Of a stretch of 17,793 nt of DNA, positions 11,082-17,641 are shown in pieces (the stretch's first letter is position 1; every line of letters begins with the position of its first letter). The position numbers and the translations under genes were made by a program. Source of the stretch: an uncultured candidate division Zixibacteria bacterium (GTDB lineage: Bacteria; Zixibacteria; MSB-5A5; GN15; PGXB01); the NCBI GenBank assembly GCA_937925655.1, contig CALAMC010000063.1, forward strand, positions 1-17,793. Reading direction: 5' to 3'. The notes beneath the pieces were generated by a model. That model saw only the letters and a list, made by a program, of their open reading frames with translations, was not told the origin of the DNA and did no database searches.

Positions 11082-13112
11082 TTATTTCAGAAGCATCATC
11101 TTCCGCGTTTCAATGGCATCGTCCGCCTGGATGCGGTAGAAATAGACCCCGCTGGCGAACGATGAGCCATCCCATTCCACCGTATGATATCCCGGTGCGA
11201 ACCTCCGGTCGGCGATCGTTGACACTTTCTGTCCCATGATATTGTAAACATCGAGCGTCACATGCGCCTCGACCGGCAACTCAAAACTGATCTGCGTCAC
11301 CGGGTTAAACGGGTTGGGGTGGTTCTGGTGCAATGCGAATTTATCCGGTAATTGGGGCGAATCCGTATTATTTCCGGCAATTTCAAGATATAACGGCTCG
11401 GCATTCATACCACCCGCAAAGGCCGACACAATTTCGGCTTCACCGTCGATTTCAAGCAGTATTATCTCGCCTTTATCGATTTGATGCTGGCCATTAATGT
11501 CGAAGAGCGCCAGCTTAATCATATCGTTTTCCTGACGGGAATAGACCTGCATACCCTCGATCGGGCAGGAAACATTTGCCGAAATATCGGGCAGTCTTAT
11601 TTCCATTTCAATGCCTTTAATGACATCGACGGCGGCGAGCATAATAATGGTCTTGCCATCGGCATACTCGGTGGAGACCTCACCGCCATACGGAGCATCA
11701 GAATATTTCTGCATAGTCGAGCCAATCTTGTTCAAAGGCGATGACTCAACGCATCCGCAAACGAAATCACATACCGGAGGATTACCGTATTTGCAGTTAA
11801 TCAGCAACAAGATATCAAGCAGGTTAACAACGCAATCACCGTTGACATCCCCGCTTGAAGGTGGTATCGGTGCCGGACCGGCCGGATTGCCATAGACAAA
11901 ATTGATTACATACAGAATATCAACCAGATTAATAACGGGTTCACCGGCAGTATTAAAATCAGCATTGACATTGCCGGGAGTATATGCATAATCAGGATAG
12001 CTGTATGCCCAGCTGGTGTCGAACATTACATTTGGATAAAACACACCCGGTTCGGGGATTTTAAATGTATCCGCAAACAGCAGTCCCTCACCGTTTATAG
12101 TGCAGGTATCCAGTACTAATGCCAGGGAATCTGTCGAAATAAACGGTTCCAGAATACAGACGGTATCATAAGTATTAAGAGGATTCTCAAAATGAAGATA
12201 AGCCAGAACAGCATCTTCACCGGTCAATATGTAATCAAAATCCTGTCCGACCGCGGCGTATATCAAGACATTCTGATTTTCATTATCGATAATTTGACCT
12301 TTAAAACCCCAGCTTTCCACCGCAGTTCCAGCGAATGAAACACTCTTAAGCTCAAAATCCGTCGGTCCCCAGCAAAGCCCGACCTGATATGCCGCGGTGG
12401 GGGTTTGGCAACTGAATCGAACTGGGATAATCAATTCGGATTCATAAGAGTGGATGGAGGGAATATAGAGCAAATCAGGAATGGCAGAAATCCGAATATA
12501 ATCCATTTGACATGTTGCATCCCAGGGTTGAACAAAACTAAGTCTTACGATTTCGTTCGGAATTGACCAATTTTTCGTTACAACCGGGATAAAATCCGTC
12601 TCATCGTCTGTCTTAGCGAATAATTCCCCACCATCAGCACGAATTATCGTTTTCATTGTAATCCAAATGTTCTCTGATTGAGGGCTTGCAGTATGAACAT
12701 TTGTCCATTCATCCATAAACTTCCATCCGAATTGTTCCCATGGTTGTACATTAGGAAGATATGTAATGAAATCTGCATCATCATTTGTCGGACCATAGAA
12801 GAAACCAATCGCCGGTAAAGTATAATGCTGCCCATTACTAACAAGCCGAAACCGCGTTTCCGCGACAAACGGTAGATCCAAAGAGATAAACTTGTCGGCC
12901 CCGTCAGCAGAGGACCCATTCGATGATATACAAAGCCACCCGCTATCTAAATTAACATATACTGACGAATTAGTTGGCATCCATTCACCAGCGCCAATAA
13001 CATCAGTATCGAAGTGCTCTTCATACAGCACTTCCGCGTTTGATCGCTGCACCATAATCGCGAGCACGACAGATATGGCTACGACCACTAATATGGTTTT
13101 TAACTTTGGCAT
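11082..13112 (-). CDS. Secreted T9SS-cargo protein with dockerin-like repeats and type-A CTD (676 aa)
   Basis: Start set at the second ATG (13112) because a perfect GGAGGG SD lies 7 nt upstream of it; the product begins MPKLKTILVVVAISVVLAIMVQRSNA (signal peptide). The C-terminal HQNHPNPFNPVTQISFELP...VTLDVYNIMGQKV...GYHTVEWDG...SGVYFYRIQA...KMMLLK is a textbook T9SS CTD. Internal SGDVNGDCVVNLLDILLLINCKYGNP and NADFNTAGEPVINLVDILYVINFVYGNP are dockerin-like EF-hand repeats. Confidence 0.8.
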   Translation of the reverse strand: MPKLKTILVVVAISVVLAIMVQRSNAEVLYEEHFDTDVIGAGEWMPTNSSVYVNLDSGWLCISSNGSSADGADKFISLDLPFVAETRFRLVSNGQHYTLPAIGFFYGPTNDDADFITYLPNVQPWEQFGWKFMDEWTNVHTASPQSENIWITMKTIIRADGGELFAKTDDETDFIPVVTKNWSIPNEIVRLSFVQPWDATCQMDYIRISAIPDLLYIPSIHSYESELIIPVRFSCQTPTAAYQVGLCWGPTDFELKSVSFAGTAVESWGFKGQIIDNENQNVLIYAAVGQDFDYILTGEDAVLAYLHFENPLNTYDTVCILEPFISTDSLALVLDTCTINGEGLLFADTFKIPEPGVFYPNVMFDTSWAYSYPDYAYTPGNVNADFNTAGEPVINLVDILYVINFVYGNPAGPAPIPPSSGDVNGDCVVNLLDILLLINCKYGNPPVCDFVCGCVESSPLNKIGSTMQKYSDAPYGGEVSTEYADGKTIIMLAAVDVIKGIEMEIRLPDISANVSCPIEGMQVYSRQENDMIKLALFDINGQHQIDKGEIILLEIDGEAEIVSAFAGGMNAEPLYLEIAGNNTDSPQLPDKFALHQNHPNPFNPVTQISFELPVEAHVTLDVYNIMGQKVSTIADRRFAPGYHTVEWDGSSFASGVYFYRIQADDAIETRKMMLLK
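11085..11333 (-). other. T9SS type-A CTD of the 676-aa protein
   Basis: Residues ~598-680 of the track ORF: NHPNPFNP, VYNIMGQKV, SGVYFYRIQA, KMMLLK. Confidence 0.85.
11784..11969 (-). other. Tandem dockerin-like Ca-binding repeats within the 676-aa T9SS cargo
   Basis: Two about 24-aa segments (residues ~386-447 of the track ORF) match the dockerin pattern D-x-N-x-D-x-x-V-N-x-x-D-(I/L)-x-x-(L/V)-x-x. The second copy is near-canonical (DVNGDCVVNLLDILLLINCKYG). Confidence 0.5.
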
Positions 13113-13265
13113 ACAACCCTCCATTAAAAGATGATAAAATTTACCTACCTTCTAGTTTTTGCGCCGACAGGCCGAATATTAAAGGCCTGCTTTATTATAA
13201 TATTAGCTACCGAAAATCGATCGTGTAGAAAATCAAATAATAGTATTACTAATGATAAAATGGAT

Positions 13266-15629
13266 TTACTTATGATAAAAATCTATCCCGGCCGAAAGGT
13301 GGTGGATTATGGAATCTTTGTGATATACAACAATTTCGCTCTTTAATGAGTCTAATAAACGCTCAAAATCGCCAATTGGCTGTCGCCCAAGTTTAATTAA
13401 TAGATCGTTTATTTGTCTCGGGGCAGAATCTTCGGGGAATAATTTTATCGGAATATAATTACTGTCCATTACATAGTACAAATGAGGGAGTTCATACAAA
13501 TCGCTTTTGCGTTCTCCGTCCAGAATTATATTTACGCCTTCAGCCGTGGTGATTTGAAAACTCGATTTTTCTGAATTAACATTTATTGCATAAATACTGC
13601 TATATATGCCGGAACCAACTGAGAGCGGTGATTTAGGGAAAACCACATAATAATCTTGATTACCGGAAGGCATACCAGATAGCATAAAATATTCATCATC
13701 ATAGGGAGGTGCGATACCGGTTATTTCTTTCGGCTCCAAGATTGCTATAAAAGGACCCGGGAATCTATTATTGAGACCATAGCAAAGAATTTCTTCATTC
13801 CCGTCAGCATCCCTATCTATTCGGAACCCGCGAAGAAACCCCAAAGCACCGGGGTTTATATATGGGCCAGAGACACAATTCCCCTTTAAATCCAATAGTA
13901 TTACTTGTGCTCGCCCTGGGGCTGAAGCAAAAGAGCAGCAGATAATGTACTTTTCATTATTATTGTCTTCATAGGGCATTAATTCTGGTGCAATATAGAA
14001 TGCGTTTTCAGTAATTCCTGGGTAGCTTATATCTCCGGGATAGGTAGTTATTACATAAGGATTTTTTCTCCAAACAATTTTACCATCGTGGTCGAAAAAT
14101 ATGATCTCAGCGGGCAAATCAAGTGAATGGGGGGCAAAAAATAATTCCTTCTTGCCATCAGAATCGAAGTCTTCAATAAAATAAAGCATTTGATTCTTCA
14201 CTGAATCATTATATTTAGAGTCCTGTAAAGCCATTGGAAATTCGCAAGATGCCCATAAAAAATGATTATCAGAATTTATAGACAAAAATCGATTACCAAT
14301 GACTTTTATATGGTCAATATTCCAGTCAAACCATATCCAGGCTTTGGGATAGATAAGGCATATTAATACATACAATAGACACATCAACAGCGGCACCTGG
14401 AGTTTCGTCATGCGGCTGTACTTGACCACGCGGCGGGCCGTCAGCTGGCCGATACATACTTTTTCCGAACGAATAATATTGCGGTTTTCCAGAAGGTCGG
14501 AAAGATGAGCGGCTCCCACCATAAGCAACCGTCGATTGGGATATCGGACAGTCATTTTCTCCAATGCGCTTTGGGCCGTCGCCAGATTACCTTCAGGAAC
14601 AACCAAGTACTTGACCGGCGAGAAAAAGGCCCGTTCGACTTTAAACGCAATCGTTTCACCGTTGACCGGCAGAATGTGCCCCTCTTTGTCGATACTGCCC
14701 GTGAAGGCCACATCTGACGATAAAAACCGTTCATGCCGGACAATTTCCGGTTTCATAAGCTGGGTATAGGTCAAAAGCGCCGCCGCCAGGCCGATAGAAT
14801 CACCCGTGAACTGATGATTGCGGCCAGCGATATTGAAGTGAGCGTGATAGCGGCGAACAGCTTTATGCCGGAAATCACTGCGCTTGAATATGCCTCGAAC
14901 AGATTCCAGCGCGTCATAGGCCACCCCGATAAAGGGGTCATCGGGAGTCTTGATTTGATTGTCAAACGTGACTTCATCGATCGGCGCCGACTTGCGAAAC
15001 AACTCGACCCGGGCCGAGAGAAATTTCATCCGCCCGCGTGCGGCTATTCCCCGGCTGTCCTTTTCGACAAACAGGCACAGCGCCTGATCCTGATAGAGCG
15101 ACTCGCGATAGCCCTCCCATTCGGTCAGAATATTGAGCAATTCGGATTTGACCGGAGATTCGATATCCTTGTGCAACGAATAAATATGATACAAAGTGTC
15201 GAATTCATTCAAACCTTTAATTAAATCTCTATCTGCCGAATCAATAGCAGTATCGTCGCCCAGGATTTTCAGGGCGGTTTCATAATCGCCGACATAAAGC
15301 AATTTGCGGGAATATTCGCGGCGAACCGTGCCGAAGACATCTTTTATATTGTCATTATTCCGCTCCGATAATGTTTTCAATAAGGCATGAATCGACTTCA
15401 GTTCGTCGAATGAAAGGTTTTCAAGATTGTCTTTGGTGCACCTTCCGGTCAATTCGCCGATAAATTCGGCCAGGTAGGTCCAGTTCGATTGATGCGGCAA
15501 AGAGTCGGAATGATTTTTCCAGAAATCCAGCATCAGCGCCAGGCCGTCAACCGGATCCGTCTCGGTATTCAGGCCGGCCCGGAATTGCTCGAAATCCCGG
15601 GCAAATCGCAAAGGTGAAAAATCGCTCAT
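13266..15629 (-). CDS. Membrane protein: N-terminal helical region + cytoplasmic Lon-like (S16) protease domain, single TM helix, C-terminal periplasmic FG-GAP/beta-propeller-like domain (787 aa)
   Basis: Residues ~220-350 align block-for-block with the Lon proteolytic domain. [18 protein letters not shown] matches [31 protein letters not shown] matches [28 protein letters not shown] matches [47 protein letters not shown] matches [37 protein letters not shown] matches KTVLIPFEN. No Walker A / AAA+ module and no signal peptide. One hydrophobic helix at 410-428 ([19 protein letters not shown]) has a positive patch before it ([11 protein letters not shown]), giving N-in topology. The C-terminal 360 aa contain DxDxDG loops ([32 protein letters not shown]). 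Confidence 0.8.
   Translation of the reverse strand: [787 protein letters not shown]
14346..14402 (-). other. Single transmembrane helix separating the Lon-like domain (cytoplasmic) from the C-terminal sensor-like domain (periplasmic)
   Basis: 19 consecutive hydrophobic residues (aa 410-428), flanked N-terminally by R/K-rich sequence (positive-inside rule). Confidence 0.6.
14580..15032 (-). other. Lon-like S16 protease domain with candidate Ser278-Lys330 catalytic dyad
   Basis: Ser278 in GDSIG (codon at 14796-14798, rc tct) corresponds to the Lon GPSAG serine. Lys330 in IAFKVE (14640-14642) corresponds to the Lon GGLKEK lysine. Confidence 0.65.
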
Positions 15630-16477
15630 GCAAATAGCCTTATTTTTATGGCTTCTTTCGGATCGGTGATATCGAAAACTGCCGCCTGGTTGGGTTTCAA
15701 AAGCCGGGAGTCGAATGCATCCTTCTGCGCCACGACCGCCCTGATTGTCCCTTCCGCCGCCCGGCCCTCTATTTCCAGCACCCGGATATTTATCTGCGCG
15801 CCCGACATTTTGCGCTCGAACACGATTTCGATTTTGTCATCGCGGTCGCTGGTAAGCACGGTTCGACTGGAAGATTCCACCTTTTCGGCGTCATATTCGA
15901 TTTTTTCGAGTTCGAACACCGCCGAAGGCAATTTTATCTGCCATTTGAGTTTGTCAATATCTGTCAGGGGGGTGTCGATCGGGGCCCGGCCATTGGTATC
16001 GGTTAAAAATTCCCGCCCGATTTCGGGGATCTGGACCAATACGTTAGCTGTTTGTTCTGCGTTCTCGCCGATCAAGTGCAGAAAATCGGAGTTGGTTTTC
16101 GGATCGTGCATCACGCGCAGGATTATTTCGGGATCTTCCGAGCCAAGGGTTATCAGACTATGCATGAAGTCCTTTTCCTCGGGCGAGCCATCGGCGGCCA
16201 TCTGTCTTGGTATCGATATTCCCGGCGCCGATATGATAAAAAGCGGAATAATTTTCCCGTTTTCCAGTTGAGCAATAATACCGGCCGTTATCTTTTGGCC
16301 ATAGAAATCGATTTCGGCGTCATCGGATTTTGCTATTTCGTCTGCCAGGTGACGATACTGCTGACAATATTCGCGGCAGAACTCGCACTCGGCAAGATGC
16401 CGCTCCACTTCTGTAAGTTGCAGTCCCTCCAGCACTTTGTCGCAATATCTTTCCAGTTTATCTTTTGGCGGATGCAT
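15626..16477 (-). CDS. zf-HC2 (HxxxCxxC) anti-sigma-factor-like protein, apparently soluble (283 aa)
   Basis: The N-terminal LTEVERHLAECEFCREYCQQYRHL carries H27-x3-C31-x2-C34 (plus C12, C38), the signature of the ChrR/RsrA-type zinc-binding anti-sigma N-domain. No convincing TM helix. The stop overlaps the downstream start as ATGA (15626-15629), which implies translational coupling. GGGGA RBS upstream. Confidence 0.7.
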   Translation of the reverse strand: MHPPKDKLERYCDKVLEGLQLTEVERHLAECEFCREYCQQYRHLADEIAKSDDAEIDFYGQKITAGIIAQLENGKIIPLFIISAPGISIPRQMAADGSPEEKDFMHSLITLGSEDPEIILRVMHDPKTNSDFLHLIGENAEQTANVLVQIPEIGREFLTDTNGRAPIDTPLTDIDKLKWQIKLPSAVFELEKIEYDAEKVESSSRTVLTSDRDDKIEIVFERKMSGAQINIRVLEIEGRAAEGTIRAVVAQKDAFDSRLLKPNQAAVFDITDPKEAIKIRLFA

Positions 16478-16508
16478 AGTATTTCCCCTGCAACTTTACA
16501 CCAATATA

Positions 16509-17576
16509 TTAGCTGCCGATATCCCCAAGTGTAGAGTCATTGTTTATTTTATCTATAAAGTAATTCATCGCCGATCTTACCGTCGTATCCCAGATATGTT
16601 TATAACGTTTTTGATATTCCTTGCTGTCGATTTCAGGGAAAACCCTCTGGCAGTATGATGGCAGCGAATCATGCTCGCCCTTGGTGATAATATCGTCGAA
16701 ATATTCAGCCAGGGCATGTGAAAAAAGATCGGCCTGTTTGTCAGTTATTTTTTCTTTATCTATAAAATGCTGCAGGTGTGTCCGGCGCATGAAATTAACA
16801 GTACAATCCTTGGCCCGCAGATATTTTTTCAACGCAAAATCATCTTTGGGTCCCGGGGGAATTGGAATGACTGAATCGATATCGATAAATCTTAAATACG
16901 TTTCAATGAAAACCTTTTTCAGCTCGCGCACTGGAATGAAATTGGCGAATTCCTGCGATTTATTAAGTCTTTCGAAAATGTAGCGCACCATTTGCGGGAC
17001 AGTCTTCGATTGCTGAATAGCTTTTTCGGCCAGTATCATCAACTCGTAGTAATCTATTTCGGGCCGATTTATGTAAAGAGCATTTGCATTACATGCCAGA
17101 TAAATATACACAGTCGAGTTATCTTTCAATTTGGAGGTTGAATAATCTTTTGAAGCAAAAGCCCTATCAACTTGACGGGCGAATTTGGCCATAAGGGGAT
17201 CAATGTCTTCGTTAATTTTAGGCATCTCCTGCTTCACAAATCCAAATAGCTGACATTTGAAAACGGCATATATTTTTTCACCCACGGCAGAATCGAAAGA
17301 TGTATAACCCAGATTTTCAAAGTATTTAAACAGCATATGGGCAGGGCGGTTGTCTTGGGGCCATAAATAGCGAGAAACAATATCGACTGCCAGGTCGAGA
17401 ATATCCTTTTGCAGATTATCCGATTTTCGTGGAATCATTTTGCCGCGGCCGACGATAAAAGCCAAATATCCACGGGCCATACGCAGGCACATGTTGGCAA
17501 AAAGCTCCAATTTTCTGCAATCAACGTGATTGCGCAAAAATTCAATTAGATTTCGAATATCCGACTCTTCCGACAT
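16509..17576 (-). CDS. Hypothetical alpha-helical protein (355 aa), first gene of the three-gene cluster
   Basis: Long ORF, 32 nt upstream of the anti-sigma-like gene on the same strand. K/E/D/F/Y-rich; no catalytic motif, signal peptide or TM recognised. Only a faint resemblance of residues ~20-75 (ELFANMCLRMARGYLAFIVGRGK...SDNLQKDILDLAVDIVSRYLW) to sigma-70 region 2 of ECF sigmas. Confidence 0.7.
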   Translation of the reverse strand: MSEESDIRNLIEFLRNHVDCRKLELFANMCLRMARGYLAFIVGRGKMIPRKSDNLQKDILDLAVDIVSRYLWPQDNRPAHMLFKYFENLGYTSFDSAVGEKIYAVFKCQLFGFVKQEMPKINEDIDPLMAKFARQVDRAFASKDYSTSKLKDNSTVYIYLACNANALYINRPEIDYYELMILAEKAIQQSKTVPQMVRYIFERLNKSQEFANFIPVRELKKVFIETYLRFIDIDSVIPIPPGPKDDFALKKYLRAKDCTVNFMRRTHLQHFIDKEKITDKQADLFSHALAEYFDDIITKGEHDSLPSYCQRVFPEIDSKEYQKRYKHIWDTTVRSAMNYFIDKINNDSTLGDIGS

Positions 17577-17612: not shown

Positions 17613-17641
17613 AAGATAAAAAATTCTCTGTTGGATGTCAA
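17613..17641 (-). promoter_or_regulatory. Candidate sigma70-type promoter for the three-gene cluster
   Basis: On the minus strand: TTGACA (rc of 17636-17641), 17-nt spacer, TATCTT (rc of 17613-17618). The predicted TSS is about 30 nt upstream of the ATG at 17576. Confidence 0.3.

Follow-up and report, generated by a model that had tools for sequence, protein, structure and literature searches.

In the RsiW and RseA systems, an envelope signal leads to the destruction of a membrane-spanning anti-sigma factor by an extracytoplasmic site-1 protease followed by an intramembrane site-2 protease: RsiW is cut by PrsW and then RasP, and RseA by DegS and then RseP. Lon-type proteolytic domains (P-domains; MEROPS S16, Pfam Lon_C PF05362, PROSITE PS51786) occur in several further settings. 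LonA (E. coli Lon, 1rr9/1rre) and LonB (A. fulgidus 1z0e, T. onnurineus 3k1j, B. subtilis LonBA 8dvh) have an AAA+ module, into which a transmembrane (TM) helix is inserted in archaeal LonB, and LonC (4fw9) keeps a degenerate AAA-like domain. In proteins of the YlbL/SdrC type, a TM segment at the N-terminus is combined with a PDZ domain and a Lon domain on the outer side of the membrane, while BrxL, RadA/Sms and ComM couple a Lon-like domain to other ATPases. In RadA and ComM the Ser-Lys dyad is absent. A different arrangement is found in CalpL, an ATP-independent Lon-like protease that becomes active when its sensor makes it oligomerise and then cuts the anti-sigma protein CalpT, setting free the ECF sigma factor CalpS (PMC11417357). 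The cut falls inside an LAAA motif of CalpT (bioRxiv 10.1101/2024.05.08.593097). The sensor of CalpL is a C-terminal, cytoplasmic SAVED domain that binds cA4, its genes lie in a type III CRISPR neighbourhood and the output is an antiviral response.

Here, we analyse a gene, C, in a 17,793-nucleotide stretch of DNA (the window) from an uncultured Zixibacteria bacterium, in which a sequence-only reading had flagged a stand-alone Lon proteolytic domain at positions 14580-15032. To that reading we add a TM helix, an extracytoplasmic FG-GAP-like domain, a three-gene cassette (A-B-C) and a shared promoter motif (Table 1). Like CalpL, C has a helical domain ahead of its ATP-independent Lon-type Ser-Lys protease and is encoded next to a gene for a soluble anti-sigma-type protein (~30 kDa) and a factor-like third gene, and the Ala-rich linker motif cut in CalpT has a counterpart in an invariant (L)AADG linker motif of B. 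However, the sensor of C would consist of a TM helix and an extracytoplasmic FG-GAP-like domain, no cas genes are present in the flanks inspected and the output is apparently a secreted cargo gene; a sequence relation between B and CalpT or between A and CalpS is undetectable. Compared with LonA and LonB, C has neither an AAA+ module nor Walker A/B motifs, its TM helix follows the protease domain and the large extracytoplasmic domain is extra. It differs likewise from LonC, which has the AAA-like domain that C lacks, from the YlbL/SdrC type in its layout, and from BrxL, RadA/Sms and ComM in its independence of other ATPases. As in the RsiW and RseA systems, an envelope signal would lead to anti-sigma destruction, and B shares homology with the cytoplasmic domain of RsiW in its N-terminal domain, but B is soluble and the signal would cross the membrane by way of the protease. 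We know of neither the order helical-repeat, Lon, TM and FG-GAP nor a linkage to an anti-sigma gene in LonC, YlbL/SdrC, BrxL, RadA/Sms or ComM, and a literature search returned nothing on the architecture of C or on type IX secretion in Zixibacteria.

Table 1 Features of the cassette and its surroundings (positions in the window; aa, residues of the encoded protein).
Feature	Position	Strand	Basis or remark
Gene A, 355 aa, soluble, orphan family; candidate divergent sigma-like transcription factor	16509..17576	(-)	
Sigma-70-type promoter-like TTGACA-17-TATCTT, 37 nt upstream of A	17613..17641	(-)	Consensus scan, 10/12 matches; weak
Promoter-like site 2, TCTACAC-N16-CTAAT, over last codons and stop of A, 31 nt upstream of B	16508..16535	(-)	
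Gene B, 283 aa, soluble zinc-finger (ZAS-type) anti-sigma-like	15626..16477	(-)	Stop overlaps C start by 4 nt
B aa 93-97, MAADG (family LAADG), candidate cleavage or recognition site	16187..16201	(-)	Linker otherwise variable
Gene C, 787 aa, membrane-anchored Lon-like protease	13266..15629	(-)	ORF and translation; stop codon included
C aa 1-176, N-terminal all-helical (helical-repeat-like) domain, not AAA+	15102..15629	(-)	
C aa 180-392, Lon (S16) proteolytic domain	14454..15092	(-)	Encloses 14580-15032
Ser278 codon (GDS motif), putative nucleophile	14796..14798	(-)	Codon checked; aligns with EcLon S679, AfLonB S509
Lys330 codon, putative general base	14640..14642	(-)	Codon checked; aligns with EcLon K722, AfLonB K552
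C aa 407-434, one TM helix, sequence strongly conserved (Q411, P413, P428, D435)	14328..14411	(-)	Hydropathy and family alignment
C aa 440-787, extracytoplasmic FG-GAP/VCBS-like domain, probable beta-propeller	13269..14312	(-)	Repeat matches in family
Promoter-like site 1, TCTACAC-N16-CTAAT, C-D intergenic region	13202..13229	(-)	Motif scan
Gene D, secreted, signal peptide, dockerin repeat and type IX C-terminal sorting domain; variable 'output'	11082..13124	(-)	

The Lon-type domain and architecture of C

At the sequence level, the single C protein is genuinely, though weakly, similar to Lon. In a phmmer search against the PDB it matches archaeal LonB protease domains only (3k1j at E 8.7e-4, 1z0b/1z0e at E 4-5e-3), and the NCBIfam LonB models reach E 2e-4 to 6e-4 with 16-20 bits, relative to cut-offs above 500. 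Pfam Lon_C gives no match at E <= 0.1 in the window's own protein, which is below the curated family threshold, and weak matches in 13 of 57 relatives (best E 3.7e-4). The full-length C family profile against the PDB matched a short Lon segment alone, at E about 5e-3. Given that there was no Pfam match and only this short segment in the PDB, structure prediction was needed. The AF2 model of residues 1-405 has a pLDDT of 91.5 and a pTM of 0.89, and when the C model is searched against the PDB with Foldseek, all 50 of the top 50 matches are Lon proteases, with TM-scores of 0.73-0.80 to isolated P-domains.

The catalytic positions are recovered by profile alignment. Using hhalign, the C family profile aligns to the E. 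coli Lon P-domain with a probability of 89.7% and E 1.8e-6 over 106 columns (the Lon sequence aligned equals 1rr9, apart from S679A in that entry), pairing S278 with S679, K330 with K722, T310 with T704 and G276 with G677. The sequence-only reading had named Ser278 of GDSIG and Lys330 of IAFKVE as the dyad, and both hold: residues 278 and 330 are the Ser of FTGDSIG and the Lys of IAFKVE, respectively, and each aligns with its dyad column. The flagged stretch itself is in frame and encodes residues 200-350. The C family is divergent, with relatives 29-61% identical and a mean column identity of ~33%, and the conservation of S278 and K330 in 121/121 family sequences each is not expected of inert Lon-like domains. 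On its predicted alpha/beta fold, the stretch is hence a genuine Lon-type Ser-Lys protease domain without an ATPase, as had been claimed from the letters.

The claim that the protein has no Walker A/B motif also stands, given that pattern scans for Walker A (G/AxxxxGK[ST]), GK[ST] and hhhhD[DE] return none in the 787 residues of C. Residues 1-176 are all-helical in the model and have no AAA+ match, and no degenerate AAA-like alpha/beta domain of the LonC type precedes the P-domain. Pfam finds no PDZ domain in C, and the sole TM segment follows the Lon domain. C is not a member of the LonC, BrxL, CalpL or YlbL families. Homologues of 750-820 residues number 108, predominantly from Zixibacteria metagenome-assembled genomes (MAGs), and all are labelled 'hypothetical'; UniRef has automatically named one relative 'Lon proteolytic domain-containing protein'.

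In a Kyte-Doolittle profile with a 19-residue window, the TM helix of C is the maximum at 2.19 and no other segment exceeds 1.6. Its N-terminal flank carries five positive charges, so an N-in orientation is predicted, and by the positive-inside rule the Lon domain would be cytoplasmic and the C-terminal half of the protein outside. For this outer half, Pfam FG-GAP_3 is found in 21 and FG-GAP in 8 of 57 family members, with no FG-GAP match in the window's own C protein, and the family profile matches the beta-propeller proteins 6mlt (E 1.9e-5) and YesW 2z8r (E 1.3e-4). From these repeat matches, the outer domain is probably a beta-propeller.

Neighbouring genes and the shared motif

The order A-B-C is kept in about 38 of the 42 loci from Zixibacteria-like MAGs that have upstream sequence, across proteins 27-60% identical. 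C occurs without A and B at a few loci (L010, L043, L045, L049), and some MAGs have two or three copies of the cassette. By homology, B is a ZAS-type anti-sigma-like protein. Its N-terminal profile matches the anti-sigma-W protein RsiW (5wuq_C) at E 1.5e-4 over 62 residues, with DdvA at 0.16 and RslA at 1.6, and Pfam zf-HC2 matches at E 1.8e-3, below the cut-off of that model. B combines an anti-sigma domain with an HxxxCxxC zinc motif and an upstream His ligand, the features by which ZAS proteins are recognised, and H2, H27, C31 and C34 are invariant in alignments of 25 to 38 sequences. No TM segment is found in B by hydropathy. In the linker, A94, A95 and D96 are each conserved in at least 95% of 38 aligned sequences, and by analogy the (L)AADG motif might be a site of cleavage or recognition. 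The sequence-only reading had expected a regulator rather than a bulk-degradation protease, and this gains strength because C is conserved in linkage with an anti-sigma-type gene.

Gene A belongs to a family of ~355-residue proteins that comprises 789 representative clusters without database annotation. Word-index searches with A returned 3 and 5 relatives. The family gives weak matches to sigma-2-like folds, while a profile search of A against the PDB, Pfam on sets of 7, 10 and 81 family members and hhalign of A against RpoE are all negative. A is probably the transcription factor that B holds, perhaps a sigma factor that has diverged strongly. At other loci the words most often found upstream of A resemble TTGACA, yet their number does not exceed that in shuffles, and the sigma-70-type promoter ahead of A is therefore no more than a consensus match.

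A variable gene for type IX secretion cargo, D, usually lies 3' of C; it is missing on the same strand at L018, L030, L031 and L034. In the window, D has a hydrophobic segment at its N-terminus and Pfam matches to Por_Secre_tail (E 2.7e-8) and Dockerin_1 (E 2.8e-5); the public gene call starts it at 13112, which gives 676 residues. Among 31 downstream genes elsewhere, Por_Secre_tail is found in 20, FlgD_ig in 18 and dockerin in 10, and the remaining domains vary.

A bipartite, promoter-like family motif, TTTCTACAAA-N15-CTAtT, is found upstream of both D and B. It has 42 sites in the 1.1 Mb scanned, compared with 0-6 in shuffles, and nearly all of them sit at two fixed positions of the cassette: ~27 are 1-150 nt past the C stop, and the position equivalent to site 2 has the motif at most loci. 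In the 17.8 kb window, the exact pattern TCTACA-N17-CTAWT occurs at sites 1 and 2 only, and these two share TCTACAC...CGGnAGCTAATAT, which exceeds the family consensus.

Proposed mechanism and alternatives

With a Lon domain predicted to be cytoplasmic, a putative outer sensor domain and an anti-sigma-type neighbour, C is most likely a signalling switch for a secreted-protein gene and not a bulk degrader. We lean slightly towards a sensor-coupled, ATP-independent Lon protease that cleaves the anti-sigma protein B and thereby releases A, in the manner of CalpL, CalpT and CalpS. In such a system B and C would be co-transcribed and translationally coupled, with A preceding them. The propeller of C would sense a cue outside the cytoplasmic membrane, and the conserved TM helix would relay it as an altered oligomeric state or orientation of C. 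The cytoplasmic Lon domains would then cut B, perhaps in or close to its invariant (L)AADG linker, and the freed A would drive transcription from the cassette-specific promoter TTTCTACAAA-N15-CTAtT. As this promoter lies ahead of both D and B-C, its use would also feed back on B-C. Gene linkage and the analogy with CalpL point to B as the putative substrate of C, and we infer both the reading of the motif by A and the nature of the signal.

C could instead be a signalling protease with another substrate, such as itself (freeing the N-terminal helical domain), A or the precursor of D, while B controls A separately, for example through redox or zinc. We regard this as unlikely. The 4-nt overlap couples translation of B to that of C, B is soluble and would share the cytoplasm with the Lon domain, and the near-invariant LAADG in an otherwise variable linker resembles the LAAA cut in CalpT. 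The precursor of D fits poorly, given that D has a signal peptide and, being exported, would not meet a cytoplasmic Lon domain.

A housekeeping or quality-control role for C, as a membrane-anchored protease similar to LonB minus its ATPase that trims unfolded or membrane-proximal proteins and has functionally unrelated neighbours, is quite improbable. The order A-B-C is kept across very divergent loci while the other surroundings change, including an SPFH/NfeD pair, and the several paralogous copies per genome are a poor fit to such a role. Moreover, C has no unfoldase to supply bulk substrates, and the large conserved outer domain and the sequence-conserved TM helix suggest signalling.

Even if C were part of a signalling system, its Lon-like domain might act as a non-catalytic scaffold or binding module (cf. 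RadA/Sms, ComM and the C-terminal domain of BrxL), with C sequestering B or A at the membrane and no cleavage taking place. The catalytic columns make this very unlikely, as Ser278, Lys330, Gly276 and Gly280 vary little or not at all, Thr310 is kept in 117/121 family sequences, and C matches canonical active Lon P-domains better than inert ones. A role of the cassette in anti-phage defence, like that of CalpL or BrxL, has a slim chance at best and was rejected on context: PADLOC weakly matches its CRISPR-Lon, CARF-Lon and SAVED-Lon models, only at E about 0.02 (0.016-0.023), and the arrangement of Lon protease, anti-sigma and factor is like CalpL/T/S, but a SAVED/CARF domain is absent, the flanks inspected have no cas, CBASS or BREX genes, the sensor domain of C is predicted to be extracytoplasmic, the linked output D is type IX cargo with carbohydrate-binding, dockerin or protease domains, and the structural match of C to CalpL is poorer than that to housekeeping Lon.

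Returning to cleavage of B by C, we tentatively propose, with somewhat less than even confidence in the whole, a new one-protein transmembrane signalling protease, in which a propeller sensor, a TM helix and a cytoplasmic Lon domain would serve to cleave a soluble ZAS anti-sigma protein and free a factor of a novel, highly divergent sigma-like family that recognises a -35/-10-type promoter of its own, TTCTACA-N17-CTAtT. In Zixibacteria and their relatives in the FCB group, genomes would contain several paralogous cassettes, each in control of one type IX cargo gene. Dyad mutants, cleavage of B and binding of A to the promoter are each directly testable in a heterologous host. If the proposal is true, Lon-type domains would be reusable ATP-independent signalling switches far beyond the CRISPR-linked CalpL, and the cassette would give roles to three uncharacterised families, one of which has no database annotation across its roughly 800 representative clusters. 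Type IX cargo genes of an uncultured phylum would gain a promoter motif and a regulon logic, and envelope signals would have a third route to RNA polymerase, next to two-component systems and to the cutting of membrane anti-sigma factors by site-1 and site-2 proteases.

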